Of a stretch of 64,000 bases of DNA, positions 1 through 12,951 are shown piece after piece (positions within the stretch are counted from its first letter, which is position 1; each line of letters begins with the position of its first letter). Origin of the DNA: Staphylococcus phage Fi4S2; sequence record PV037056.1. One strand, 5' to 3'. The notes below the pieces were generated by a model. It saw only the letters and a program-made list of their open reading frames with translations. It was not told where the DNA came from and ran no database searches. The position numbers were made by a program, and so were the translations under genes.

Positions 1-255
1 GGGTAGCCCCGTAACCCCTCATGCATACCCCCTTTTATGGATTTTAAAAAAGGGGTGCTTATCCCTTGACTTCTGTCGAGAAATATGCTCCCTACCTCAT
101 CCACAGATTGCCCCCACTGTCAAGCATTAATTTAATATCACCCCAGCACTCATAAACTATTATTTGTGTTTGCTTTAATCTATTTAATTAGCTTCTAGCC
201 TTCAGCAAACACAAAGAAGGACAAGACCAGCTGGCCTTGTCCTCTTCTCTCTTCA

Positions 256-1203
256 TTACTTGTTGATTTGGTCTACTATCTCTCCATCTTTGATTATAAT
301 ATACATGTAATCAGTCTCTACGATTGTGTGACCGTCAACAAGATAATAATTCTTATTAACCTCTTGCTGTGTCTCTCTAAAATAGCGCTTAGACTTGAAT
401 AGTGTTATCGTTCCATACTCAACGTTTAAAGCTGTACTAACTGGCGTTACTGCTCTAACGTCTGTAATGCCCACAGACACCCCAAAATCGTCCATCATAG
501 CGCCTGCATACCCTAAGGCCTGCAAGTCGTGTAATACCTGCACGCTGTCGTCCTGATGTGTCATAACGTCTTCTGCCTGCTCCTCTTCTATCATGTCTAT
601 GGCCTCACCAACTGTGAGAGGTTCCTCCTCCTCTTCTGTGTCTATCTCTTCCAGTTCATCTTGAAGCATTCTAGCTTCATATTCAAAGATAGCCCAGGCA
701 AGATAGTTTTTGTCCTGCGTTGAGAGTTCTAGAGGGTCGTTCTCATACATACAGATGCTATCCATTTCCATAAGAATTGCGTCCTCCTGCTCCATGTCGT
801 CCATGTCTTCCCAGTCTTCCCCGTAATACTCGGCCATGTTGCTTTCTGCTATTTCTCTTATGTCTGCCTCTGCGTCCTCGTGTCTATCGTCTGCGCTATC
901 TACTGGGAACATCTCCGATAAGTCCTGAATACCGTCCCAGCTCTCCAGCTCCTCAATTCCGTAGACCTCAGTTACAAAGTTTTTTATTTCTTCCTCGTGC
1001 TCCTCGTAATATGCTTTTGTGTCCTTGTAGTAAATTAAGTGATTAACCATCCCCGATTCACAGCCATGCGTTACAATGTTATCAAGAAGGCCTTCTGCGT
1101 CTTCTGCGTCTTGAGACATCTCTAATAAGTAGTTTATAACGTCTTGTTTTACTCCTTGAGTTTCTGCTTGCATGTTTTCTAATACTGTTAATAAATTTGT
1201 CAT
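256..1203 (-). CDS. hyper-acidic protein (D/E-rich, 315 aa); candidate DNA-mimic/anti-restriction-like early protein
   Basis: Long ORF. The protein is dominated by Asp/Glu runs (EEEEEPLTVGE..., DWEDMDDMEQED). It is preceded on the minus strand by a TTTACA-18-TATAAT promoter and GGAAGGA SD at 1204-1265. Confidence 0.55.
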   Translation of the reverse strand: MTNLLTVLENMQAETQGVKQDVINYLLEMSQDAEDAEGLLDNIVTHGCESGMVNHLIYYKDTKAYYEEHEEEIKNFVTEVYGIEELESWDGIQDLSEMFPVDSADDRHEDAEADIREIAESNMAEYYGEDWEDMDDMEQEDAILMEMDSICMYENDPLELSTQDKNYLAWAIFEYEARMLQDELEEIDTEEEEEPLTVGEAIDMIEEEQAEDVMTHQDDSVQVLHDLQALGYAGAMMDDFGVSVGITDVRAVTPVSTALNVEYGTITLFKSKRYFRETQQEVNKNYYLVDGHTIVETDYMYIIIKDGEIVDQINK

Positions 1204-1280
1204 TTTGAATATCCTTCCGAGCTCCTGCTCTGTTATTTGGTATACCTAATTATAGCATTAATTTCTAAATTCTGTAAAGC
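1204..1280 (-). promoter_or_regulatory. repeated leftward promoter cassette, copy 1 (TTTACA-18-TATAAT + SD)
   Basis: Minus-strand reading: ctTTACAgaatttagaaattaatgcTATAATtaggtataccaaataacagagcaggagctcggaaggatattcaaaATG. A near-identical block recurs at 1996-2050. Confidence 0.5.
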
Positions 1281-1318
1281 GATAAGCCCCAATTAAAGGG
1301 GCAATTTTACACCCCTTT

Positions 1319-1681
1319 TTATACTTCATACTCGAAGAAATAAGCATCTAGCTCATCCAACCATTCAAAGGATTTATACTGTTCTGTGTCCCAATCCTCA
1401 AAACCTAACTGCTCAAATGTGCCCCACTGCGTAGTGAATAAGTGCCCAATTGTACCACCTGCAACCCTTACAAGTATTTTTCCATTCTCTTTTAGGAACT
1501 CGTAAGAGCTTCCTCTGAATTTTTGGCTGATTGCTTGCCCGTTCTCTAATCCCTGCATTACCTCGATTAATCTTGTGTTATCGTTGTTATAAATTTTCAT
1601 TTGAAAAACTCCTTTGATATCTTTAGTAGTGACGTTAATCACTCTATAGAGCCACCAGGTGCGCCCTGGTAGTTCTAACAA
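1319..1681 (-). CDS. hypothetical protein (120 aa)
   Basis: ORF co-oriented with flanking genes in the G+C-richer leftward block. Confidence 0.45.
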   Translation of the reverse strand: MLELPGRTWWLYRVINVTTKDIKGVFQMKIYNNDNTRLIEVMQGLENGQAISQKFRGSSYEFLKENGKILVRVAGGTIGHLFTTQWGTFEQLGFEDWDTEQYKSFEWLDELDAYFFEYEV

Positions 1682-1684
1682 TGA

Positions 1685-1966
1685 TTAAGCTTGTGTTGCT
1701 TTGTCGTGTCTCTCTTGTGCTTCCTGGTGAGTGTCAGGGAAATCAAACGTCCTAACTGATTTAGCACCGTCAAAGCGTGTCACAGTTGTTTTTGTGTGGT
1801 AGTAACCAAAGATAGTATATTTCTTTTGAGTGCGTCTCTCACCTTCCCAGCGCTCCTCAACAAATGATGTTTTGAATTGGTCATGTGAAATGAATGACTC
1901 TCTAGTGTCTCCGTTAATGTCTGTGTACGTTACCTTGATTGATTGTAATTGATTGAAATTTTCCAT
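1685..1966 (-). CDS. hypothetical protein (93 aa)
   Basis: ORF 3 nt upstream of the 1319..1681 gene. Its upstream region (1996-2050) repeats the promoter cassette seen at 1204-1280. Confidence 0.45.
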   Translation of the reverse strand: MENFNQLQSIKVTYTDINGDTRESFISHDQFKTSFVEERWEGERRTQKKYTIFGYYHTKTTVTRFDGAKSVRTFDFPDTHQEAQERHDKATQA

Positions 1967-1989
1967 TTTTAATATCTCCTTTTGGGCTG

Positions 1990-2050
1990 TTGCCCTCTGT
2001 TATTTGGTATACCTAATGATAACACATTAGGTTTAATTCTGTAAAGCTAA
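1990..2050 (-). promoter_or_regulatory. repeated leftward promoter cassette, copy 2
   Basis: Shares ctgttatttggtatacctaat...ttctgtaaagc with 1233-1280. Minus strand gives TTTACA-18-TATCAT. Confidence 0.45.
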
Positions 2051-2352
2051 ATGACTCAATTTGTTAACTTTTTTTTTAAAACCAGTATGGCCAAAATAAA
2101 TACGTTAGCGCTGAAGCGGTTCCCAGCATTGACCAGCCGATTATTTTAAGATTCTTTTTCACTGTGTGCCCTCCTTTCCAGTTGCTGAAGTAAGTTATTT
2201 TTTCTTGCTTGGTTTCTTGCTTGCTTTCTTTTTTGGGTATCCTGCAGGTGGCATAAATTGGTTTGCCATTCTCTGCATTGCTTTTGTTTCTTCTCTCATC
2301 TCTGCACCTCCTAATTTCAATTTTAAGGGCTCTAGGTGAGCCCCTGCACCTC

Positions 2353-2571
2353 TTACATGTGTTTCATAGCGTGAGCCATGATTTGCTCTTGTGTGAGCTT
2401 CTCAAAGCCTTGATAAGTCATTCTTGCGACTGTTGCGTCTGTTTGGTTCAAGTAGTCGTAAACTTCTTTGACTGGGACAAGTCTGTCACGCTTTGCTAAG
2501 TACTTAGCAACCTTTCTTTCTACGTGCTGGGCAGTGCTTTCACCTTTCTCGAAGTTCATTGTTGGTTTCAT
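2353..2571 (-). CDS. hypothetical protein (72 aa)
   Basis: ORF. Its upstream element tcctttcgagctcctgggctcttg resembles the element upstream of the 256..1203 gene. Confidence 0.4.
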   Translation of the reverse strand: MKPTMNFEKGESTAQHVERKVAKYLAKRDRLVPVKEVYDYLNQTDATVARMTYQGFEKLTQEQIMAHAMKHM

Positions 2572-3067
2572 GTTCTCATATCCTTTCGAGCTCCTGGGCT
2601 CTTGTTTTTTGTGTTGCTGTTCTTGACACTCTTAATACTAAAGCATTAGCAACCCAATTGCAAGCATTAATTTACATTATTTCATCAAAAAGCCCACAAA
2701 CCCTTGTGGCTCTAAGGAAAAAAGTTTTTAAATAAATTACTGCAATCTAGTTTCTACCATATAAAGGGAATAAAAAGGATTTACCCCCAGCAAGAAGAAA
2801 GCACTATTTCAAATTGCAGTTAGTGAGTGCAGGGGGCAAACGGTAAACAAAAAACATACTAAACAGTGGCAAAGTCGATCGACTTTTAAAATTTAAAAAT
2901 GACATCAAAGTGATCACTTGCACCCACCTTCAAAATTTGCCCTTATATGGAAAGAAAAGTTTTTTAAAAGAATTTGAGCATATGGGTTGTGTTATGGTTC
3001 GATTTGTTATATATTAGAACCAAGCCAAACAAGGCAACCAAAAAAAAACCTAAAGGAGTTTTTCATT

Positions 3068-3415
3068 ATGACAAACCAAACACTAAACAACATTAACCAA
3101 ATGCCAGCATGGGACTTACAAGATATTTTAAACTACGCAAAGCAACAAATGATTGAGAATGACATAATCTTTCAAGATGTAACTTTAAACAATTACCAGC
3201 TACAAGAAGAGGACGGCACGGAATACTTCGAGCTTTACACTAGCACCGTAGCGATTGACTCCGAGACAACTCTCGAAGAGTTCAGAAGCCAGGTTATCGA
3301 AGCTGAGGAATTAGCAGAGACTTTCAAAGGAGCCCTGGCACTGCTACAACGTTCAATCAATGAGCACATGAAAGAAAAATATTTTGAATATGATTACATT
3401 ACAAATTTACTGTAA
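3068..3415 (+). CDS. hypothetical protein (115 aa; start refined from the 2987 track ORF)
   Basis: The ATG at 3068 is preceded by AAAGGAG SD; the track ORF starting at 2987 has no SD. Followed by a hairpin plus long T-run at 3421-3470. Confidence 0.5.
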   Translation: MTNQTLNNINQMPAWDLQDILNYAKQQMIENDIIFQDVTLNNYQLQEEDGTEYFELYTSTVAIDSETTLEEFRSQVIEAEELAETFKGALALLQRSINEHMKEKYFEYDYITNLL

Positions 3416-3420
3416 GAGCA

Positions 3421-3470
3421 GGAGCCCCTGGGGCTTCTCTCTCTTTTTTCTTTTTTTTTTATTTAATTTT
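3421..3470 (+). terminator. rho-independent terminator
   Basis: agcccctggggct hairpin followed by tctctctcttttttcttttttttt. Confidence 0.5.
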
Positions 3471-3486
3471 TTTAGGGCAACTTTGT

Positions 3487-4515
3487 GGGCTACTACTTAG
3501 AAGAATTGTGGACTACTACTTAGAAGGATTGCTAATATCCATTCTGTTGTCTATAACTACTAAGCAAACCCCTCTCATAGATAACCAATATAGATTAGGT
3601 ATTATTTATCTATTAGAAACTACTATCATATAGAGTTAGCGTAGTGTTGCTTACTCTATAGAGGTTGATAACAAACTGTCGGCTACTACTATAGTAAAAC
3701 ACAAAATGACCGCTTTCCTGAATACATTATCAGACTAGAAGCGGTTATCACATACTAACTATTTAATTATACTCATTACAACGCTATATAAATAGCTATA
3801 GCGACTAAACACTGTGGATAGCTACTATAGTAAACCCGTTACTGTTATAACTATAATCCATAACTTATAGCTTACCTGTAACTACTCTATCAGTATACCT
3901 TATCTATATAGCGCTACAGATGAAGTGTGGATAGCTACTATAGTTAATCACAGTTTTATATAGACAATGAATCCTATATACTATTGCTATTCTATAACTG
4001 AACAGTAGGTACACGCTCTAGAAGCTCTCATATACTATCGGTAACTACTTAGAATATAACCGCTTCTCTCTACTGATTGTGGACTACTACTGTATCTAAA
4101 TAGCAATTGAATAGAGTTAGCTTCAGCTGTCGGCTACTACTATAGTAATTCATGAAGCGGTTGAAAAAGTGTTTTGAAAAATTGATTTGAAATTTTGGAA
4201 ACTAAAAAGGTAGGGTGGCTACCAGGGGTACCTTCTACTCTCTATTATATATCTGAGTGATACTTACTTAGCCCTAGTCGATAGTTATTAGATTGTTATA
4301 GAGTTAAAGGAGGAACTAAATAACAGTTGAGTATTTAAGGAGTTTAGTTATGAAATTATAGAGTTAGTTTTTTAGGATAGTTGCTAGGGCTTTCTATTCA
4401 GTACCACTCAATTAGATAACAGTTAAGTTAGGAGGTCTTAACTGTTAAATACATTATAACATAGCTTGAGGATTTCTTTTTATCTTTTGCAATTTCATGG
4501 ACTACTACTGTAGAT
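3487..4515. repeat. iteron-rich non-coding region (at least 12 copies of a CTACTAC(T)-TAG(T/A)A core)
   Basis: Tandem 22-mers GGGCTACTACTTAGAAGAATTG / TGGACTACTACTTAGAAGGATTG at 3487-3531. Exact 22-bp direct repeat ctgtcggctactactatagtaa at 3677 and 4127. Exact 18-bp gtggatagctactatagt at 3814 and 3927. tggactactact at 3509, 4079 and 4499. No ORF of 60 aa or more. Confidence 0.8.
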
Positions 4516-4686
4516 ATATTGACTACAATACATAATGACGTATTTAGGATTTTAACGATGTTTATATATAACTATAATTATAGTAGTATTATAGTTCTTT
4601 AATAGTTATATAACTATAGTTACTAATAAAGGTTAATAAATTCTTAAATGTGTCATAATACTTTGTGTACAACATAAAAATAATAG

Positions 4687-4715
4687 TTGACTCTGTTCAG
4701 GATAGATGATATACT
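4687..4715 (+). promoter_or_regulatory. sigma-A-type early promoter TTGACT-17-TATACT
   Basis: Read directly; 25 nt upstream of the GAGGAGA SD of the 4747 gene. Confidence 0.6.
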
Positions 4716-4746
4716 TAGTTTACAGATATAAGAGAGGAGAATAATT

Positions 4747-5031
4747 ATGGATACAAAATACAAAGCTTTAGATTTTTCAGAGGTAGATTTATTAAATGCT
4801 TTCCACTTCTATGTAATATCAAAAGTAGATAGCATTACAGATGTTACTCAAACAGATTCAGGAGAGGTTTACTATAAAGGAGAGGTTATCTTGAAGATGG
4901 ATAAGAACCTTGTACAAATCTTTACTACCCCTATCATGGATAAGATGACTGAGGAAGATTTTAGTTTTATTGCTAGCTTCAGAAACGCATTACAAATTAT
5001 TATCAGTCAGAAAAAAAGAATTACAGAATAA
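4747..5031 (+). CDS. early small protein (94 aa)
   Basis: ORF with AGAGGAGA SD; first gene of the rightward early array. Confidence 0.55.
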   Translation: MDTKYKALDFSEVDLLNAFHFYVISKVDSITDVTQTDSGEVYYKGEVILKMDKNLVQIFTTPIMDKMTEEDFSFIASFRNALQIIISQKKRITE

Positions 5032-5094
5032 TGCTTGACATTCAATTAGAACTATAGTACACTATTATTACAAACAAATTAGGAGGAACAAATT

Positions 5095-5319
5095 ATGTTA
5101 CCATTTTTTACAAGAGTTAAGAAAGAATTAGAAGCAAAGGGTTACACAGTTACAGACAATACAGAGGAAGGTTTCTTTGTAGCAGAGAACAGCAGTAAGG
5201 TCTACACTATTGATTACAAGAATGAGGTCTTGGAAGAGTTAGATGACAAAGGACAGCTACACATTCAAGACATTAATAGTCTAGACATCACAGAAGCGGA
5301 AATCAAAGTAGCTTCATAA
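5095..5319 (+). CDS. early small protein (74 aa)
   Basis: ORF with AGGAGGA SD; upstream TTGACA-17-TACACT at 5035-5063. Confidence 0.55.
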   Translation: MLPFFTRVKKELEAKGYTVTDNTEEGFFVAENSSKVYTIDYKNEVLEELDDKGQLHIQDINSLDITEAEIKVAS

Positions 5320-5452
5320 CTAAAGAGGAACTTAGCTCTCTAGAACAATAACCGCTTCATGATAAATTGTTCCTAATCTATGATTAAGTTATAGAGGGTC
5401 AAGAGAGCTAGGCTTCTGTGGAAGCTAGAATTGAAATTAGGAGGTTAAAACT

Positions 5453-5740
5453 ATGGCACCAATCATTAATGATGCAGGTTATCCAAGAGAGGAACAGGAA
5501 ACGGTCTGCGTATATGACGCTCTGTTAGGACAGTGGGTACTCTCTTCTAGTGTAAGGAGACATATTACAAAGCTGATGAAGCAGTACCCTGAAGCGGAAG
5601 TAAAAGAACAGTACAGTAATGGAACACCTGTGTATATAGAAGTAGTATTGAATGAGGATTTAGTATCTTTCCGTAAGCCCGTATCTAAGGAAAGGAAAGA
5701 AGAAATGTCTAAACTAGCTAAGGAGCGTTTTGGTAAATAA
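5453..5740 (+). CDS. early small protein (95 aa)
   Basis: ORF with AGGAGG SD. Confidence 0.55.
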   Translation: MAPIINDAGYPREEQETVCVYDALLGQWVLSSSVRRHITKLMKQYPEAEVKEQYSNGTPVYIEVVLNEDLVSFRKPVSKERKEEMSKLAKERFGK

Positions 5741-6114
5741 TGACAACAATTAATAACCCGTTTGCTAAAGCTTTACTTAAACAAGTGGAAGCAACATATA
5801 ACAAGACAGACATTCTAGCCAATAACTCAACACTTATCCCTATCCCTAAAGAAGTCTTTGACTCCAATCAAAAGGCTAAGCAGTTTATTAAACTGATGGG
5901 TAAGATGCATAAGGATGAGAGCTTACCTATTGAGGTAAAGCTAGAGCCAACTAAGACACAAGTAAATGGTTTGACTTATACAACAATAGATGTTATCATT
6001 AGTTATGATACAACTAAGTTAGACATAGATGACTTCAAGAAGAAGTTAAGTTTGATTAATACAGAGGAGGAGCCTCAGAATGGAACTAGTAATCAAGACA
6101 TCAGTAAAGGATAA
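5740..6114 (+). CDS. early protein (124 aa)
   Basis: ORF whose ATG overlaps the upstream stop (TAATG). Confidence 0.5.
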   Translation: MTTINNPFAKALLKQVEATYNKTDILANNSTLIPIPKEVFDSNQKAKQFIKLMGKMHKDESLPIEVKLEPTKTQVNGLTYTTIDVIISYDTTKLDIDDFKKKLSLINTEEEPQNGTSNQDISKG

Positions 6115-6304
6115 CAAAGTCATTGTAGTAACTGAAGAAGAGGCAAATGGTGCAGGAAATCTTATTCAGTTATTTGCTAATATCAATGAGGACATCAAAA
6201 ATGAGAGAGCAGTTGTTGTAGCTACAGACTATAACAGACACTCTATTGCAAATGGTTACGTCAATCAAGTATATTTAGTAAGAGATACAGAGGAGGAAAA
6301 ATAA
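6080..6304 (+). CDS. early small protein (74 aa), ends ...EEEK
   Basis: ORF with GAGGAGG SD. Its 3' end forms the GAGGAGGAAAAATAATG junction cassette. Confidence 0.5.
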   Translation: MELVIKTSVKDNKVIVVTEEEANGAGNLIQLFANINEDIKNERAVVVATDYNRHSIANGYVNQVYLVRDTEEEK

Positions 6305-6504
6305 TGATGAGAGTATTAGATTACCCATATAAAGTAGCAACAGAGTTTACAGAGGAAATGAAAGAGGATAGAGAGGTACTAGGGATTGTACTAAAAGAAC
6401 TTATTAGCAAATCCTATGGTGATAAGATTACTAGTATTAACACTAGAGTCGTAGATGGTAAGGAAATCATTCAAGTTACAGCAGAACAAAAGGAGGAAAA
6501 ATAA
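6304..6504 (+). CDS. early small protein (66 aa), ends ...EEK
   Basis: Start inside the junction cassette. Its own 3' end forms the next cassette. Confidence 0.5.
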   Translation: MMRVLDYPYKVATEFTEEMKEDREVLGIVLKELISKSYGDKITSINTRVVDGKEIIQVTAEQKEEK

Positions 6505-6788
6505 TGAAAGAAGAACTTGTACAAAAACTAAATGATAAAGTAGCACAACTCAAGGAAGAAAGAATGGAGTATGCTAAGACTCATGCACAGTGTGAAGAAG
6601 AACTCCGTAGCTTAAAAAGTGAACTAGAGCAATTACTTCAAGACTATAATGGAGCAGTTACACTATTAAATGGTTCTGTGTACAGTGTCGAGAAGATTGA
6701 TGAGGAGCTTGAAGCTTACAATCAAACTACTGGAAGACCTTTATATAGAAAACCACGCTTAGAGTTATCAGTTAAAAAAGGTCATTAA
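6504..6788 (+). CDS. early small coiled-coil protein (94 aa)
   Basis: ORF starting in the junction cassette. Confidence 0.5.
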   Translation: MKEELVQKLNDKVAQLKEERMEYAKTHAQCEEELRSLKSELEQLLQDYNGAVTLLNGSVYSVEKIDEELEAYNQTTGRPLYRKPRLELSVKKGH

Positions 6789-6808
6789 AAAAAAATATCC
6801 GCTTCTTG

Positions 6809-6837
6809 TTGACAGCTTGAAGCGGGCATGATATACT
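6809..6837 (+). promoter_or_regulatory. sigma-A-type promoter TTGACA-17-TATACT embedded in a ccgcttc/gaagcgg hairpin
   Basis: Read directly. The -35 hexamer sits in the loop of the inverted repeat ccgcttc...gaagcgg. Confidence 0.55.
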
Positions 6838-6866
6838 AAGTATATAATCAATTAGGAGGAGATATT

Positions 6867-7112
6867 ATGAGTAACGTATTTGCACAAGAACAATTTATTG
6901 ACCGTTTAGAACAAGAAGGATTAGAAGTAGTTGAGGAAGATGGTTATTACACAGTAGAAGATGTAGAAGGTCATGTTATTACTATAGAGTTTAAAGATGG
7001 CACAGTATTAGTCATGGATAATGAAGTAACAGAGACAGCTTACAACGTTGAACAAATCTACTTAGCGTTCTATGCAGTGTTAGACGCACTGGATTATGAA
7101 TTTGATGAATAA
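6867..7112 (+). CDS. early small acidic protein (81 aa)
   Basis: ORF with AGGAGGAG SD. Confidence 0.55.
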   Translation: MSNVFAQEQFIDRLEQEGLEVVEEDGYYTVEDVEGHVITIEFKDGTVLVMDNEVTETAYNVEQIYLAFYAVLDALDYEFDE

Positions 7113-7117
7113 AGTTC

Positions 7118-7146
7118 TTGACACCACTCAAGGACTTTAGTATAAT
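7118..7146 (+). promoter_or_regulatory. consensus promoter TTGACA-17-TATAAT
   Basis: Perfect hexamers and 17-nt spacer. Confidence 0.7.
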
Positions 7147-7176
7147 AGTATTATAACCAGTTAGGAGGTATTAGTT

Positions 7177-7251
7177 ATGACTAGAGAACAAATGGAAATG
7201 GAACAAGCTAGACAAGATTATGTAACTGCAAAAACAATCAGAAACTTTTAA
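7177..7251 (+). CDS. micro-ORF (24 aa, MTREQMEMEQARQDYVTAKTIRNF) created by tandem duplication of a promoter-SD-start module
   Basis: ATG with AGGAGG SD. Its N-terminus MTREQM mirrors MNKEQI of the downstream gene. Not in the 60-aa track. Confidence 0.35.
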   Translation: MTREQMEMEQARQDYVTAKTIRNF

Positions 7252-7260
7252 TTATAGTTC

Positions 7261-7289
7261 TTGACACTACTCAAGAAATATAGTATACT
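7261..7289 (+). promoter_or_regulatory. promoter TTGACA-17-TATACT (second copy of the duplicated module)
   Basis: Near-identical to the 7118-7146 copy. Confidence 0.65.
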
Positions 7290-7320
7290 AGTATTACAAA
7301 CCAATTAGGAGGAGTTAGTT

Positions 7321-7719
7321 ATGAACAAAGAACAAATCATTAAAGATATATTGGAGAGAATGGAAGATAAGGGAATTTCACTTGAGAACTTATCCTTTGA
7401 TGGAGACTACAAGATTACTATAAATGATTTAGCTATAGAGTTTACGTATAGTGGAGACCAAGCAACTATCTTCTATGATGGAGGCAGTAAACGTGTAGGA
7501 TTCCTAGAGGAGGTAGCAGGAGAGGTAGTAGCATTACTACCTGTAGAAGAATGGGAAGCGGGTCAGTTAGTCAGAAAGCTAAATCATACTAGAGTATTAG
7601 TTATATCATCGTGGGACTCTGATAGTTTTAACCTACTCGATGATGAGGCATATAAACTAGAGTATCAGTACCCATACACTACAGCAGAATTAAAAGAGAT
7701 GGGATGGGAGAGAGCATAA
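7321..7719 (+). CDS. early protein, paralog family A (132 aa)
   Basis: ORF with AGGAGGAG SD. N-terminal ~50 aa similar to the 7719..8138 and 15716..16150 products. Confidence 0.55.
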   Translation: MNKEQIIKDILERMEDKGISLENLSFDGDYKITINDLAIEFTYSGDQATIFYDGGSKRVGFLEEVAGEVVALLPVEEWEAGQLVRKLNHTRVLVISSWDSDSFNLLDDEAYKLEYQYPYTTAELKEMGWERA

Positions 7720-8138
7720 TGAAATTACTAAAACAGCTTGTACAAGTACTGGATGAGAGAGGTATTCAAATAAAGAACTTAAATGTAGACGATGTGATTA
7801 ATGGAGAGTACGGAATTGAAATCAACAAAGAAATCACTATTGTCCATAGAGAAGGTTTGTATTATGCGCTATATACAGAAGATGCTAGCTTAGAGGAGAC
7901 ATATTACAGTTCTCTAACAGAAGCACTAGAAGTAGTAGCTGACTATTTAAGTAGAGTAAAGGAAGGCTCTATCGTAAAATCTTTTCTTGGCGTATTCACA
8001 TATAAAGTTATCAAACACAACAGTAAAGATTTGTATAACTTACTAAATGTAGATGACAACACCCTATTATATACAGAGTGTGAAAGTATGGACTCTATTC
8101 AAGACAAGATTAACAGAGGTCAGTTTTATGCAGAATAG
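7719..8138 (+). CDS. early protein, paralog family A (139 aa; start refined to the TAATG overlap)
   Basis: MKLLKQLVQVLDERGIQIKNL... similar to ILERMEDKGISLENL of the upstream gene. Confidence 0.5.
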   Translation: MKLLKQLVQVLDERGIQIKNLNVDDVINGEYGIEINKEITIVHREGLYYALYTEDASLEETYYSSLTEALEVVADYLSRVKEGSIVKSFLGVFTYKVIKHNSKDLYNLLNVDDNTLLYTECESMDSIQDKINRGQFYAE

Positions 8139-8316
8139 TAAATGGTACGCACTATGTGAATATAAAGGTAAAGGGAAGAATAAAAAGCCTTATCAGATAC
8201 AGGCCTCTACAAGTAAAGAAAAGCTTTTAGATAGAAAGGATAGCTTAGCTTTAGAGTATCCTGATAGAGAGTATGCAATAAAGTTAACGACAACCTTTGA
8301 CAAAGAGAGAAAGTGA
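8128..8316 (+). CDS. early small basic protein (62 aa; start refined from the 8053 track ORF)
   Basis: In-frame ATG at 8128 with AGAGGT SD; followed by a terminator. Confidence 0.45.
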   Translation: MQNSKWYALCEYKGKGKNKKPYQIQASTSKEKLLDRKDSLALEYPDREYAIKLTTTFDKERK

Positions 8317-8342
8317 AGCGGGCTTAATCCGCTTCTCTTACT
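8315..8342 (+). terminator. rho-independent terminator (gaagcgg / ccgcttc stem)
   Basis: GAAGCGG-gcttaat-CCGCTTC followed by tcttactt. Confidence 0.55.
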
Positions 8343-8446
8343 TAGAGTATATAAGTAATTGTATATTGTAAGTAGGAGTGATGACCCTACTAGATTAAAT
8401 GTTGCATATAGCCTTCTGTTTATACAGAGGGTTTTTTATTTAAATG

Positions 8447-8475
8447 TTGACATACTATAACCAGTGTGATATACT
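8447..8475 (+). promoter_or_regulatory. promoter TTGACA-17-TATACT
   Basis: Read directly. Confidence 0.6.
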
Positions 8476-8507
8476 TAATACATAAGTTAATAGGAGGAGG
8501 GTAAGTA

Positions 8508-8603
8508 GTGAGAGACTTATTAAACTTACAAATTGCTTTTTATATCGTAGTATGGTTGTTAATGATGGGCTTATTCTACACATATTTATTCTTTTATTGC
8601 TGA
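8508..8603 (+). CDS. possible 31-aa hydrophobic peptide (GTG start, MRDLLNLQIAFYIVVWLLMMGLFYTYLFFYC)
   Basis: Strong SD TAGGAGGAGGGTAAG 6 nt before the GTG, and a promoter upstream. Below the ORF-track cutoff. Confidence 0.3.
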   Translation: MRDLLNLQIAFYIVVWLLMMGLFYTYLFFYC

Positions 8604-8617
8604 CCATTAAATAATTG

Positions 8618-8646
8618 TTGACATACCCTGAGTAATATGATAAAGT
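8618..8646 (+). promoter_or_regulatory. promoter TTGACA-17-TAAAGT
   Basis: Read directly; weaker -10 hexamer. Confidence 0.45.
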
Positions 8647-8674
8647 TAACACATAGTAAAGAGGAGGAAAAGTA

Positions 8675-8890
8675 ATGGATAAGAAAACCACTATTGTATA
8701 TAAGGAAGAAGAAGATAAGACTTACATTACATCCAATGCCCCCAGGGATATGGTTAAGCTTTTGAACACGTATCCTGAAGAGTATGTAGACTCTACAGAT
8801 GAAGAAGAGTTAGGTGATGGTATTGTTAAAGTTAAAAGTATAGTGTTAACTATACCAGGAAGAGTATACAATTTTGTTAAAGTTAAGTAG
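8675..8890 (+). CDS. early small protein (71 aa)
   Basis: ORF behind a GAGGAGGAAAAGTAATG cassette. Confidence 0.5.
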   Translation: MDKKTTIVYKEEEDKTYITSNAPRDMVKLLNTYPEEYVDSTDEEELGDGIVKVKSIVLTIPGRVYNFVKVK

Positions 8891-8911
8891 TTTATATGAG
8901 GAGGAAAAGTA

Positions 8912-9097
8912 ATGGAGAATAGCGACATTATCAATAACATACTAATGGAGTTTGACCATATAGACCAAGATGAGCTAACTCATAAACAGCAAATGCTTCT
9001 AGATAGAGCAGAATCATTATTAGATGACTTATCATGGGAACTGCAAGAAGAGGAAGCGGTTGAGTTTATGAAACAGTTTAAAGAGGAGGAAAAGTAA
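8912..9097 (+). CDS. early small acidic protein (61 aa), ends ...EEEK
   Basis: ORF behind a GAGGAGGAAAAGTAATG cassette. Confidence 0.5.
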   Translation: MENSDIINNILMEFDHIDQDELTHKQQMLLDRAESLLDDLSWELQEEEAVEFMKQFKEEEK

Positions 9098-10881
9098 TGA
9101 AACTATATTTAAACAGTAATATCATAAAAGGAACACCTGAAGAGTTAGTAACTTATCAAGAACTATTAAAGGAAAGAGGCCTAGATACTGAGAAGTCATT
9201 ATTCAGTTTTGGACATATGCATCAACCAACTGAAGAGGAAGTCCAAGATACTTTCAAAGGCTTCTTTGGTTCATTGAAGCTAGATAAGTCATCTGTAGGT
9301 GCAACGGAAAGCTCTACAGAGGAAGAGGAAGAGGAAGATGATGAAGCGGACGTAGGAGAGTTCTATACAGTTGACGTAGAGAACAGCGCTCTACCAAGTG
9401 GAACCTTGTTAAAGAAAGTAGATAAGGATACGCATAAAGACTCTACAGGTCATGAATACCTATGTGTAGATTCTAACGCACTATCGCATATTGATAAAAA
9501 CTTATATCAACTAGAAGACCGCTTCAACTTTGCTACTCAGGTAGGTATTAGATTAACAGACACTACAGACCTAGCACAAGCAACTGAAGGAGAGTATTTC
9601 AAAGTAACAAAAGGATACGCAGACTTAAGTGTAGGAGACATTGTTACTATTGTTAGGGATGACAGAGATAATATGCCTCAGTGTAAGGATAAATATAGTA
9701 ACTTCTATTATCTAGAGCTACACCACCTAGAACCTGTAGAAGATGATGAAGATGCGGAAGAAAATGTTGAAGAAGACTCCATGCACGATAAAGGAGCTTT
9801 CTATACAGTAACTGAGGAGGCTAGTGAATCACCATTGCCTGTAGGGGCTATTCTCCAACATCAACAAGGCAACCTATTCATTGACTCTAGAGGACAACAG
9901 TGTATCATCTCTAGACCATCTTTTGTAGATAGAGGTAGTACACATGAGTTTGATGATTCAATTAAACAAGACCGTTTTGAACTAGCTAAAGAATTAGGTA
10001 TCCAGCTAACTTCAACTACAGACTTTGCTGTAGAAGCAAGTGATAGAACATTCCAACTTAAAGAAGATGAAATGTATTTAACTAAAGGAGACTTTGTTAA
10101 GATAGTTAGTGATGATAATGACCGCATACCTTTAGTACAAAGTATAGAAGACTCTGATAAAAAAGACTTTGTGTATATATCAACATTAGAACTGGTAGAA
10201 GATAACATAGAATCAATTCTAAGCTCTACAGATGAAGAGGAAAGTCCTTCTAGAGAACTTAAAGTAGGAGATAGAGTAAAAGTATTAAGAGCTCTAGGAG
10301 GAGCTAAAGGAGAAGCTACTGTAACTGCTGTACTAGAAGGTGGTAAGGTAGAGCTAGCAGGTAACAATAAAGAAGGTAGTTATCTATCTGATTGGAGTAA
10401 CTATATCTCAAACGTAGAGAAGATAGAGGAAGAACTCTACGACTACTATGAAGTCTTAGACCCTGACTACTTTGTTAGTAGTGTAGAGAAAGGAACTATC
10501 CTTAAAAGAACATCAAATCCCTACACTCAGTTTGATGATACCTTTATTAAGCTAGATACTTCTACAGGTATAACTCAGAGTAGTTTATTAAAGGATAGTA
10601 TTATTAAACCTGTTAAAGAAAACAAGTATACTAAAGACCGCTTTACCTTTGCTAAACAAGTAGGAGTTAACCTTACAACAACTACAGACTTTTCAGTAGA
10701 GTGTGAAGGTCATCAGTTTGAAGTTTCAGAAGATAACGATGTAGCTAACTTTACACATGGAGAAGTGCTCACTATCCTTGAGGACGATGATTCCAATGCT
10801 ATCTTTTTCCAAAACTCAGATGGTCTTGAACAGTTTGTATTATTAACAGACGTAAGAGAGATTGCTAGACCAAGTAAATAA
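9097..10881 (+). CDS. large early protein (594 aa) with three ~55-aa internal repeats (DRFxFAxxVGxxLTxTTDF...GDxVxIVxDD)
   Basis: Internal repeats at aa ~140-200, ~290-345 and ~490-545. A second repeat type (E/AFYTVxxExSxLP) occurs at aa ~95 and ~235. Terminator follows. Confidence 0.6.
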   Translation: MKLYLNSNIIKGTPEELVTYQELLKERGLDTEKSLFSFGHMHQPTEEEVQDTFKGFFGSLKLDKSSVGATESSTEEEEEEDDEADVGEFYTVDVENSALPSGTLLKKVDKDTHKDSTGHEYLCVDSNALSHIDKNLYQLEDRFNFATQVGIRLTDTTDLAQATEGEYFKVTKGYADLSVGDIVTIVRDDRDNMPQCKDKYSNFYYLELHHLEPVEDDEDAEENVEEDSMHDKGAFYTVTEEASESPLPVGAILQHQQGNLFIDSRGQQCIISRPSFVDRGSTHEFDDSIKQDRFELAKELGIQLTSTTDFAVEASDRTFQLKEDEMYLTKGDFVKIVSDDNDRIPLVQSIEDSDKKDFVYISTLELVEDNIESILSSTDEEESPSRELKVGDRVKVLRALGGAKGEATVTAVLEGGKVELAGNNKEGSYLSDWSNYISNVEKIEEELYDYYEVLDPDYFVSSVEKGTILKRTSNPYTQFDDTFIKLDTSTGITQSSLLKDSIIKPVKENKYTKDRFTFAKQVGVNLTTTTDFSVECEGHQFEVSEDNDVANFTHGEVLTILEDDDSNAIFFQNSDGLEQFVLLTDVREIARPSK

Positions 10882-10891
10882 AATAACACCT

Positions 10892-10930
10892 AACCGCTTC
10901 TAATAAAACTGAAGCGGTTCTTTTATATTT
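10892..10930 (+). terminator. rho-independent terminator (aaccgcttc / gaagcggtt)
   Basis: 9-bp stem, 10-nt loop, then cttttatattt. Confidence 0.6.
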
Positions 10931-10943
10931 GAGTAACATAACC

Positions 10944-11477
10944 TTAGTTAAAGTAACTCTTCAGTAACTTGCTTAATTTTTTATTTGTTAAGTTAGATAC
11001 AAGATGGGATAACAGCGGTATCTCTTTAGTACTTTGTATTATATAAGTGTAAGTGCTTTTCCTAGCGTCTACAAATATTAGTTCTATATTATGCTCTTTG
11101 CAATACCTTACTTTAAAGGAATCAGATTCTATAGAAGCGTAATACATTTCAGCACCTATACTACCTCTACCTATAGAGTAATGCTGTTCTCCATTAACCT
11201 CTATAACTACAGGTTTATCTGAAAGTACTCCTTTTTGTATATAAAAGTCGAACTTTCTCATAGAGTCCTTTAATCTATGCTGGAATATGAAAGGAATGTC
11301 ATTGTAGGCTAAAATAGAAGCCATTATCTTCTCAGGCTTACTATGTCTTTTAGCGGTATTAATATGACACGTCTTTAGTATAGGTGGTTCCTTTACCTTT
11401 TTTAGTTGTCTTTGTCTAGTCTTTTGATTATGCTGTATAGCTTTTTTAAGTAACTCATCATGTTTTTTCTTATTCAT
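10944..11477 (-). CDS. free-standing REase-fold (DUF559/Vsr-like) endonuclease-domain protein, copy A (177 aa from M26)
   Basis: C-terminal motifs IPF...FDFYI...VIEVNGEQHY...D...C..HNIELIF parallel the 55646..56581 product and the DUF559 pattern (IVDF...IELDGxxH...VLRF). Has its own TTGAAA-16-TATAAT promoter and GGAGG SD (11479-11545, minus strand). Inserted antisense within the rightward early array. Confidence 0.55.
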   Translation of the reverse strand: MNKKKHDELLKKAIQHNQKTRQRQLKKVKEPPILKTCHINTAKRHSKPEKIMASILAYNDIPFIFQHRLKDSMRKFDFYIQKGVLSDKPVVIEVNGEQHYSIGRGSIGAEMYYASIESDSFKVRYCKEHNIELIFVDARKSTYTYIIQSTKEIPLLSHLVSNLTNKKLSKLLKSYFN

Positions 11478-11599
11478 AGTATAACCTCCTATGTACATTA
11501 TACCATAAAACCACTTGTTTTCAATAGTAACAAAGTGTTTGACAGCCCCCACTATTATATGTTATCATTAGGTATAATCAATTTAAAGGAGGAACTATT

Positions 11600-11938
11600 A
11601 TGAGAATGGTTAGTATATATGAGTATTTCAAAGACAAGGAAGGACTACGATTGAGTGTAGGAGATAATAAAGAGGTACTGTTCGACTCAGTACGTCACCA
11701 TGGTTCTGAAGAGGAGTTGGCTCTATACTTTAAATATAAGGAGTATCCAATAGTAATAAGAGTAGATAAACCTCAAGCAGACTTAAGACTACGACTAGCT
11801 AAGCAGATAACAGGGTTACAAAAGGAGACCTTCACCCCTGTAGACAAACTAGACTCAACCTTATTAACCTACCTAGGTAAGTTTGCAGAAGAGATGGAAG
11901 AAAAAGTAGAGTATAAACTATTTGATTGGAGGGATTAG
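11600..11938 (+). CDS. early protein (112 aa)
   Basis: ORF with AAGGAGGA SD. A TATAAT lies at 11570-11575 with an upstream TTGACA at 11531. Confidence 0.5.
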   Translation: MRMVSIYEYFKDKEGLRLSVGDNKEVLFDSVRHHGSEEELALYFKYKEYPIVIRVDKPQADLRLRLAKQITGLQKETFTPVDKLDSTLLTYLGKFAEEMEEKVEYKLFDWRD

Positions 11939-11939
11939 G

Positions 11940-12041
11940 ATGCTTACAATAGGTGCATTCTTTACAGGAAGCTTTGTAGTGTTAGTATTAGCAATTATGA
12001 TAGCAGGACTAGTTACACTAGTAATGGATAACAAGAAGTAA
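11940..12041 (+). CDS. possible 33-aa membrane peptide (MLTIGAFFTGSFVVLVLAIMIAGLVTLVMDNKK)
   Basis: ATG 2 nt after the upstream stop; single predicted TM helix. Below the track cutoff. Confidence 0.3.
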   Translation: MLTIGAFFTGSFVVLVLAIMIAGLVTLVMDNKK

Positions 12042-12064
12042 ATAATAGAAGCGGAGGAGATATA

Positions 12065-12292
12065 ATGAGTTTAGTAACAGTAATAGTATTAACTGTAGTC
12101 ATAGCCATACTGTTAGGCTTAATAGCAAGTAAACTAATATTGTGGTTTGTAGATGCCTGTCAGAGAGATGAGAACAATATAACAGAGATTAGAGTAGTAT
12201 TAACTCTATTAATAGTCAGCTTAGGAGTAGACCTAGCCTTTGCTGTTGATGGAGCAGTAAGAATACAAAATAGAATCCTATACTTTTTGTAA
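12065..12292 (+). CDS. small membrane protein (75 aa, 2 TM)
   Basis: ORF with GGAGGAG SD; hydrophobic; last gene before the terminator. Confidence 0.5.
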   Translation: MSLVTVIVLTVVIAILLGLIASKLILWFVDACQRDENNITEIRVVLTLLIVSLGVDLAFAVDGAVRIQNRILYFL

Positions 12293-12295
12293 ATA

Positions 12296-12328
12296 GAAGC
12301 GGAGACCTTTACGGTCTCTTTTTTTTTG
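12296..12328 (+). terminator. rho-independent terminator (GAGACC-tttac-GGTCTC + T9)
   Basis: Perfect 6-bp stem with a 9-T run. Same stem sequence as the terminators at 55563 and 56582. Confidence 0.7.
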
Positions 12329-12516
12329 ACTATAATAGCTTGACAAATAGTGGAAAGTATGCTTTATTGACAAACTATTAATAATATGGTAGTGGTCAGA
12401 GGGGTAAAGGAGGATGAATAGTAGTGACATGGAGGCTGATAGATAGGGTCGAAGTCGGTTAGCGTGCTGGGGGCTTCCTCTACTATTCCTCTATTCTTTT
12501 CCCGTTTGATTCTTCC

Positions 12517-12951
12517 TTACTCTATTGGTTGTTCTATTACTCCCTCTCTATAACTATAGTAGATTATACCCTCTCTCATACAATACTCCCATAAATTACC
12601 TCCTTGTATATAATCTACTAGGTTGTATACAGGCATATGACCATAAGTATCCAAGACCCTATCTATAATAAGTTTAGTGTCTTGGTTTATGTCATCTAGT
12701 CCATATTTACCTGGAGCTTCTATATAATCATGTTTACTTAAATACTTATAATAATCTTCTATAGACTTTAACACAAAACCTTCTCTAGTCACATCAAACC
12801 TCTCTTGGAATAGGGGTTGTTTGTGCGTGTTAGCATACTCTGAGTATATCAAGTACAGTAGTTTTTGTATTTTTTTAGGGCTTATGTCATGTATACCTTT
12901 TTCATATGCCTCATTCACTATATGCTTTGCTATTGTTATAGGTTCTTCCAT
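12517..12951 (-). CDS. hypothetical protein (144 aa); last gene of the leftward block
   Basis: ORF. Upstream TTTTATAGGAGGAG motif 7 nt before the ATG. Confidence 0.5.
   Translation of the reverse strand: MEEPITIAKHIVNEAYEKGIHDISPKKIQKLLYLIYSEYANTHKQPLFQERFDVTREGFVLKSIEDYYKYLSKHDYIEAPGKYGLDDINQDTKLIIDRVLDTYGHMPVYNLVDYIQGGNLWEYCMREGIIYYSYREGVIEQPIE

Follow-up and report, generated by a model that had tools for sequence, protein, structure and literature searches.

A localised, unidirectional repeat array in Staphylococcus phage Fi4S2 and its proposed place at the boundary of a long terminal repeat

An open-reading-frame-free gap in the DNA of Staphylococcus phage Fi4S2 holds an array of ~21-nt direct repeats, at positions 3484-4516 of the 64,000-nucleotide stretch of record PV037056.1 that we analysed (the window). 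The array is real, unidirectional and strictly local. We propose that it is a boundary or leader repeat locus of a long terminal repeat (LTR) that serves terminus formation or packaging recognition, a proposal that we judge to be evenly poised between right and wrong. The identity of the locus as an LTR boundary or leader is more secure than the part of the proposal that concerns terminase. From its setting and content we infer that a genome terminus lies near the array and that terminase binds the repeats. Most likely, the locus is a variant of a repeat feature already described for phages K and 812, a feature whose own role is putative. The proposal draws on three observations, namely that the array adjoins genes of the LTR type, stands at the edge of a domain rich in host Chi sites, and has a counterpart in CTACTAC-type repeats at the corresponding junction of phage K.

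The repeats share the consensus TGTSGR-NNN-CTACT-N-TAG-WA, with nine strong copies and one weak copy. We made a weight matrix from the nine strong 21-nt copies and scanned both strands of the 64-kb window (128 kb of strand). When each strong copy was scored with itself left out of the matrix, the scores were 17-27 bits. Sites of at least 12 bits start at 3484, 3507, 3548 (the weak copy), 3677, 3813, 3926, 4036, 4078, 4128 and 4496; all ten are on the + strand within 3484-4516, and the scan returned no site of at least 12 bits elsewhere in the window on either strand. Two shorter words are also concentrated here: six of the seven window matches to TGTSGRCTACTACT lie inside the array, as do four of the six matches to CTACTATAGT, for which 0.63 would be expected. 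The strong copies are irregularly spaced, at 23, 170, 136, 113, 110, 42, 50 and 368 nt. A sequence-only reading of this DNA had described a dense, localised iteron array in the same place. Its exact and tandem repeats were recovered essentially as described, and the family does not recur at similar density along the window. The count of at least 12 copies was generous, since the nine strong copies and the weak one are joined by just a few AACTACT fragments.

The copies differ in arrangement and in symmetry. Copies 1 and 2 form a tandem pair of 23-mers (TTGTGGGCTACTACTTAGAAGAA and TTGTGGACTACTACTTAGAAGGA; 2.1 copies at 3483-3531), a unit that had earlier been given as 22 nt. Copy 3 (3676-3697, 29.3 bits) is the 22-mer CTGTCGGCTACTACTATAGTAA, which is present at both 3676 and 4127 and recurs as copy 8, its exact duplicate (4127-4160 when the Chi site at 4154 is included). 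Copy 4 (CTGTGGATAGCTACTATAGTAA, 3812-3833, 26.4 bits) and copy 5 (GTGTGGATAGCTACTATAGTTA, 3925-3946, 26.6 bits) share GTGGATAGCTACTATAGT, found at 3814 and 3927. They are followed by copy 6 (CTATCGGTAACTACTTAGAATA, 21.3 bits; 4035-4066 with the Chi site that comes directly after it), copy 7 (TTGTGGACTACTACTGTATCTA, 4077-4098, 25.8 bits) and copy 9 (TCATGGACTACTACTGTAGATA, 4495-4516, 25.6 bits). The word TGGACTACTACT is present at 3509, 4080 and 4498; two of these positions had been placed one nucleotide off. A perfect 10-bp palindrome, TACTATAGTA, lies within copies 3, 4 and 8, and copy 9 contains CTAC-T-GTAG; copies 1, 2 and 6 are not palindromic.

The gap that contains the array runs for 1331 nt (3416-4746), and its longest open reading frame (ORF) encodes 41 aa from a GTG start, in agreement with the ORF-free character first attributed to it. 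To its left, the genes at 256-2571 are on the minus strand and a 115-aa ORF (3068-3415, + strand) with its own terminator directly adjoins the gap. To its right, small + strand genes behind consensus sigma-70 promoters extend from 4747 to ~12290, and minus-strand genes occupy 12517-55102. The array thus has unique right-end genes on its left and LTR-type early genes on its right. The + strand block is probably equivalent to a Twort-like LTR because window 7146-10433 matches the annotated terminal repeat_regions of Stab22 and Stab23, and window 6806-6858 matches the first-promoter module of K, Stab20, Stab22 and Stab23. In Twort-like phages the LTR carries host-takeover genes. On this gene layout, the gap at 3416-4746 probably forms the left edge of the LTR-equivalent block. 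The contrast in base composition noted earlier also held, as a modest step in G+C content from 0.41 in 1-2000 to ~0.33 after 4000.

What does this junction look like in other staphylococcal phages? The unique genome of phage K ends in tandem 35-mers (TATTAYTACTACTAAGTACCTTTGTTATGTACTAC) that contain TACTACTAAGTACC, and the last 35-mer runs into TAAGTACCTG and then GGAATTC, where the LTR starts. The left terminus of K has been mapped by read-start pile-ups (PMC3896407). Kayvirus 812 has from 2 to more than 20 copies of the repeat and its mutant 812h1 has none, and the authors of that study propose a role for the repeats in replication and packaging (PMC6445280). We found ACTACTWAG four times in the 64-kb window, with both strands searched, and all four copies are in the array. 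K has three copies, located in its junction repeats, and none on the + strand of its first 50 kb. The best nhmmer match of the K pre-LTR repeat in the window is at 3479-3566, a weak match (E=0.19). The sharing of ACTACTWAG with K points to what may be a conserved junction feature.

The likeness to K and 812 extends to the layout of the locus. In each case the repeats stand where the unique genes end and the early genes of the LTR (in the window, of the probable LTR) begin, have a common orientation and are rich in CTACTAC, and ACTACTWAG is exclusive to the locus in the sequence examined. In each case too, natural variants can do without some or all of the repeats, and downstream of the repeats come a non-coding leader, which has host Chi sites, and the first early promoter. 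The differences are also clear. The copies in the window are mostly dispersed over 1 kb with unique spacers, whereas those of K form an uninterrupted tandem array; the unit has 21-23 nt here and 35 nt in K, and the relation to the K unit TAYTACTACTAAGTACC consists of a shared word. The locus in the window varies by an HNH gene swap, unlike that of K and 812, which varies by tandem copy number. In Twort, the terminus motif CCCCAGAACTTTTTC is repeated ~340 nt upstream of the true LTR start (L146 1197-1215 and 1536-1554, within Twort 130196-130553), and the upstream copy is in a 520-nt ORF-free, strongly purine-rich stretch. At the other end of the K repeat, four direct copies of AAGTCAACA are found directly outside the right LTR boundary (K 8504-8634; L127 905-1035), and therefore both K boundaries are flanked by short-repeat arrays.

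The array also stands at the edge of a domain dense in host Chi sites. The passages of PMC8022716 and PMC11442139 that cite Halpern 2007 give GAAGCGG as the Staphylococcus aureus Chi site for RexAB/AddAB, and several hairpin arms in and around the gap read GAAGCGG or CCGCTTC. The window contains 19 copies, 13 on the + strand and six on the minus strand, all within 2113-12296, an interval in which composition-matched 7-mers average 0.5 copies. The remaining ~52 kb of the window has no GAAGCGG on either strand. For comparison we counted the site in K (its first 50 kb), in the LTR of Stab22 and in a number of junction fragments. In the first 50 kb of K (L147), all 20 Chi copies (129-7921) are inside the 8.5-kb LTR and none is in 8487-50000; the Stab22 LTR (L002) has 33 copies. 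In K, Stab22, Stab23 and Twort the LTR has its first Chi site at a depth of 128-247 nt, and the 1.3-2.8 kb that precede the right LTR of these four phages contain none. This restriction of Chi to the LTR is the more surprising by-product of our analysis. Chi sites on the + strand face an enzyme that enters the right end and those on the minus strand face one that enters the left end. An LTR with both orientations would therefore protect both virion ends. The distribution of Chi suggests that the LTRs serve as cassettes of the site, directed against RexAB/AddAB and favouring concatemerisation driven by RecA.

Within the array, Chi follows copies 3, 6 and 8 within 8-12 nt (3706/3738, 4060 and 4154). 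The sites after copy 3 form an inverted pair at 3706-3744, in which ACCGCTTTC is imperfect in the window and a perfect CCGCTTC in contigs L131 and L136, with GAAGCGG at 3738. The site after copy 6 is a CCGCTTC on the minus strand at 4060-4066. If Chi marks the LTR interior, then the LTR starts left of 3706, and most of the array would be LTR leader and not pre-LTR sequence.

The natural variation of the locus shows which copies are retained. In INPHARED the closest relative, and the only one, is Staphylococcus phage vB_SsapH-Golestan-100 (Herelleviridae, Twortvirinae), which is 94-97% identical to the window where the two can be aligned. The window comes from a Staphylococcus Twortvirinae phage of a lineage outside Kayvirus. 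We gathered about twenty further contigs from Logan/ENA through homologues of the first early protein; IMG/VR, the GTDB genomes and the JGI metagenomes gave no further relatives, with random single matches or nothing. In some of these relatives, a gene for an HNH_3 endonuclease (187 aa, minus strand, with its own terminator) replaces window 3531-4142. The HNH allele is carried by Golestan-100 (L001 1476-2083), L128/129 (L128 6790-7400), L130, L132, L134, L137 and L139, and the repeat allele by the window phage, L131, L135, L136 and L150/151. The alternative segment in the window, 612 nt at 3531-4142, contains the weak copy and copies 3-7. The breakpoints of the swap are directly after tandem copy 2 and in or directly before copy 8. 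The HNH coding sequence carries a conserved CCGCTTC, and the window contains no HNH remnant or pseudogene. Because the HNH gene substitutes for them in a viable isolate, the central copies 3-7 are dispensable for a plaque-forming phage.

The outer copies and the core of the motif are better preserved. Exactly two tandem copies are present in all nine contigs that cover that part, with CTACTTAGA invariant and the preceding 6 nt hypervariable, and copy 9 is kept in all 14 contigs that cover it, the HNH-bearing ones included. Among the four HNH-less lineages, 49 of the 51 columns of the core CTACTNTAG show no variation, compared with a background of 79% for the segment (permutation p ~0.04). In its 5' half the motif varies more than the background does, and identical variants turn up in different copies and in different lineages.

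How might such a locus work? We propose that the gap is the meeting point of the unique genome, at its right end, and the redundant block of early genes, and that a sequence-specific cut in the gap or nearby would make the left genome end. The core CTACT-N-TAG repeats may be this lineage's counterpart of the CTACTAC-containing 35-bp repeats of K, and could offer the small terminase subunit, or an accessory end-binding protein, a redundant set of sites to bind. Their shared orientation would then set packaging polarity and the bound protein would place the cut, while the interleaved Chi sites might shield the ends against RexAB/AddAB and help RecA to join LTRs. Terminase recognition arrays are known elsewhere, in the pacL and pacR boxes of SPP1, the pac hexamer repeats of P1 and the cosB R sites of lambda. 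Those arrays resemble the present one in that short repeats are clustered by a sequence-specific terminase cut, copies are redundant and orientation sets polarity. However, binding is demonstrated there and the sites are in or near the terminase genes, whereas the sites here are candidates and the terminase genes are far away; moreover, the ends of the genome are long exact terminal repeats and not of the cos or headful type. A second parallel comes from T7 and T3, in which short-repeat arrays flank the terminal repeat, and from T5, which has a non-coding region rich in repeats and palindromes within its terminal repeat. Like the array in the window, these arrays belong to virulent phages, occupy non-coding sequence beside or within a direct terminal repeat and are of debated function, but the sequences, hosts and families are unrelated. 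The T5 region also differs in its position, where the segment injected first has its inner end, and in its DnaA boxes, for which we found no support here.

Several observations weigh against the proposal that the array is an LTR boundary locus with a role in terminus formation or packaging. First, the terminase genes are not adjacent to the array. Second, at most the outer copies can be essential, because the HNH gene replaces copies 3-7. Third, the use of Chi as a marker of the LTR interior would put most of the array inside the LTR, whereas the K repeats are outside it. Fourth, the tandem copy number is fixed at two across nine contigs, unlike the variable array of K. Beyond the shared 9-mer and the nhmmer match at E=0.19, nothing in the locus can be aligned to the K junction. 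The LTR of kayviruses is bracketed by the 12-bp inverted repeats TAAGTACCTGGG and CCCAGGTACTTA (PMC6022877), and these 12-mers are absent near both presumed boundaries in the window when up to two mismatches are allowed, so in this respect the expected likeness to K did not hold. Finally, sequence comparisons did not discriminate among candidate cut sites from ~3431 to ~4512.

There are four such candidates. At ~3431, in the terminator left of the array, CCCCTG followed by GGGCTTCTCTC resembles the CCTG followed by GGAATTCTTTTACCTCTC of K. A position at ~3530, directly after the tandem pair, is suggested by analogy with K. At ~4225 a G-run is followed by CTTCTACTCTC, and contig L133 starts there. 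The last candidate, at ~4512, comes after copy 9. The start of L133 is weakened as a terminus by three other contigs that begin 40-45 nt to its right (L148 and L149 at window equivalent 4264, L152 at 4269), beside a hypervariable segment, and strain microdiversity is the better explanation for the contig breaks at 4225-4269. A comparison of left with right candidate boundaries gave no significant similarity, direct or inverted. The G-rich sequence at 4210-4236 is no more like the presumed right boundary (12250-12650) than are shuffled sequences. The K leader could be aligned to 4572-4681, with z=4.6 relative to mononucleotide shuffles, but neither blastn nor nhmmer reproduced the alignment, and the direct 13-mer ATTTTTTTAGGGC at 3466 and 12869 is not significant, its second copy being in coding sequence. 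A single inverted core of the motif, CTACTATAGTTA, is found on the minus strand at 12551-12562, near the far edge of the Chi-rich domain, and might be a bracketing repeat. It falls in the 3' end of an ORF with a SocA_Panacea domain and is not significant, as a 12-mer was reached in 26 of 300 shuffles.

The strongest rival to an LTR boundary locus is that the array is near-neutral duplication debris, that is, repeats without sequence-specific function in a recombination-prone, dispensable spacer at the end of the genome. Under this explanation, which we consider improbable, a leader module made of the repeat and Chi would have been expanded by segmental duplication and gene conversion and overwritten from time to time by a free-standing HNH homing endonuclease. 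Copies 3 and 8 have the look of segmental duplication with deletion, in that the two exact 22-mers each precede GAAGCGGTT and the intervening lengths differ. The excess variability of the motif's 5' half and the circulation of its variants fit debris as well, as do the lack of copies 3-7 in at least seven HNH-bearing contigs, one of them a plaque-forming isolate, the complete lack of repeats in kayvirus 812h1 and the recurrence of an HNH element at the locus. However, debris does not account for a core that is far less variable than its background, for the strictly single orientation of the copies, for outer copies that are undecayed in 9-14 contigs, or for the same word being kept at the same junction of K, which belongs to an unrelated genus. 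Because the core is conserved, the orientation is single and the word is shared with K, some constraint on the repeats is indicated.

A bolder proposal is that the 21-mers and the interleaved Chi sites are one functional unit that links end protection, the start of replication and terminus formation. The LTRs of Twortvirinae would then be dedicated Chi cassettes that stop RexAB/AddAB at both ends and load RecA there. RecA loading would drive LTR-to-LTR recombination, the formation of concatemers and recombination-dependent replication, and a phage protein bound to the 21-mers, at the edge of the LTR, would define where the zone ends on its inner side, where terminase cuts, or both. We regard this combination as a speculative one that is probably not correct as a whole.

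Could some DNA-binding protein other than terminase recognise the repeats? One candidate would be a dimeric phage regulator that controls HNH expression or the early promoter, and another would be a protein of the nucleoid or end-protection type that works together with Chi. A dimer would suit the palindromes of copies 3, 4, 8 and 9, and a partner of Chi would suit the close succession of motif and Chi at three copies; in addition, the distance from copy 9 to the first early promoter downstream is ~190 nt, and the stretch around the copy hardly varies. That promoter was located where the sequence-only reading had put it (4687-4715, + strand; TTGACT-17-TATACT with an extended -10 TG) and serves a 94-aa gene at 4747-5031. 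However, most copies are 0.5-1.2 kb from the nearest convincing promoter, the motif is absent at the other early promoters of the window, no DNA-binding gene is adjacent and the flanking ORFs belong to no informative family. We therefore find such a protein a doubtful explanation for the array. The array copies were also considered as promoters themselves and rejected, as the other matches to CTACTATAG (26858 and 34679) have no promoter context; promoter-like matches inside the gap are at chance level (11 against 9.8 expected).

An iteron-type replication origin, in which an initiator bound to the direct repeats would melt the AT-rich sequence at 4550-4625, is very unlikely. The array does resemble the iteron origins of lambda and theta plasmids, with ~20-nt direct repeats in one orientation and an AT-rich tract nearby, and cumulative GC skew has a local minimum near 4 kb. 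Unlike those origins, however, it has irregular spacing without helical phasing, no initiator family among the flanking ORFs, and central copies, half of the total, that are dispensable. The AT-rich tract is beyond copy 9 and abuts the promoter, and for a kayvirus an origin has been proposed at an AT-rich locus elsewhere (PMC8952766). GC skew, which had been suggested as a check for an origin, does not single out the array, as skew in the window merely tracks gene orientation and its sign changes at ~4, 12 and 55 kb all coincide with gene-orientation switches. DnaA boxes were tried and rejected: two copies of the repeat match TTATCCACA at 8 of 9 positions, but the window count is 27 against 20 expected, and the DnaA-box-like half of the motif is its variable half, not the conserved one. 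Of the interpretations first offered for the array, the terminal-repeat boundary is thus the one favoured by comparison, and the iteron origin finds weak support.

A structured non-coding RNA, or small RNAs from the gap, can be set aside as barely credible, for although a hairpin in the gap has a compensatory change (below) and abundant ~500-nt non-coding RNAs are made elsewhere in the phage K genome (PMC11598898), Rfam 15 gave no relevant match (only Ysr197 at 4984-5051, outside the array, with E=0.54 and 16.5 bits against a gathering score of 167), promoter-like matches in the gap do not exceed chance, and the repeats, their central part dispensable, do not form a single plausible transcript.

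Other elements of the gap surround the repeats. The intrinsic terminator of the 115-aa ORF (3420-3475, + strand) has the stem AGGAGCCCCTGGGGCTTCT and a T-run, followed by a long T-rich tract; its stem is kept in relatives and its loop varies. Directly after the Chi site at 4154, an A-tract unit of 13 nt, TTGAAAAAGTGxT (TTGAAAAAGTGTT), is repeated in tandem (2.5 copies, 4161-4192, + strand) in the window and in every relative contig that could be read across the stretch. A G-rich palindromic element (GGTAGGGTGGCTACCAGGGGTACC, 4209-4236) resembles a minus-strand terminator and is the terminus candidate at ~4225; it includes the palindrome GGTAG-GGTGG-CTACC noted earlier, which we found at 4209-4223, and the conservation of the gap is lowest in these 40 nt (identity 0.53). 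The surrounding 4209-4260 is hypervariable between two highly conserved stretches, with the modules GGGTGGCTA, GGGGTACTACC and AGGGGTACC reshuffled among lineages, and four independent metagenomic contigs begin in it or directly beyond it. Further right, a hairpin with a perfect 10-bp stem at 4418-4446 (+ strand; AACAGTTAAG-N9-CTTAACTGTT), whose loop contains AGGAGG, has the same sequence in 12 contigs. In the L132/L133 lineage, a T>C change in one arm is matched by A>G in the other and nine of ten pairs are kept; the hairpin has no ORF downstream and no T-run. The AT-rich tract at 4550-4625 contains overlapping short palindromes directly upstream of the first early promoter and is ~100% conserved among four HNH-less lineages; the high A+T content reported for this part is evident in a G+C content of 0.25 in 4401-4800.

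Three observations concern the wider early block. At 6798-6836 a Chi-flanked promoter module reads CCGCTTC-ttg-TTGACA-gctt-GAAGCGG-gcatga-TATACT; blastn identifies its homologue in the first promoter of the LTR of K, Stab20, Stab22 and Stab23 (E=4e-6). The distance from the left terminus to the module is 200-400 nt in these four phages, and here the module is 2.1 kb into the early block; this lineage therefore has about eight extra early genes to the left of it. The 594-aa ORF at 9097-10881 contains three diverged internal repeat copies of at least 67 nt that are 61-73% identical (window 9515-10700). The first minus-strand gene past the Chi-rich domain (12517-12951) encodes the SocA_Panacea antitoxin-like domain (Pfam E=8e-9). 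In Golestan-100, the segment 135014-136433 (L001 1-1420) is inverted relative to window 2060-3475 and to all metagenomic relatives. The inverted segment holds the 115-aa ORF, a 72-aa gene and one Chi site and has A/T runs at its bounds. The Golestan-100 record ends at this segment and its other early genes map elsewhere in the record, so the inversion is either a real rearrangement or an assembly problem; the paper on Golestan-100 contains no terminus data.

Why does the locus matter? SPO1/Twort-like phages are the workhorses of anti-staphylococcal phage therapy. For the question of how their multi-kb exact terminal repeats are recognised and duplicated, the array supplies a defined candidate recognition motif, and the HNH-bearing relatives are natural "deletion mutants" for five of its copies. 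If the repeats are neutral debris, the region is an ordinary one. The Chi pattern leads to a testable idea on how these phages cope with RexAB, and Chi sites may offer a cheap, sequence-only marker of LTR extent in collapsed assemblies.

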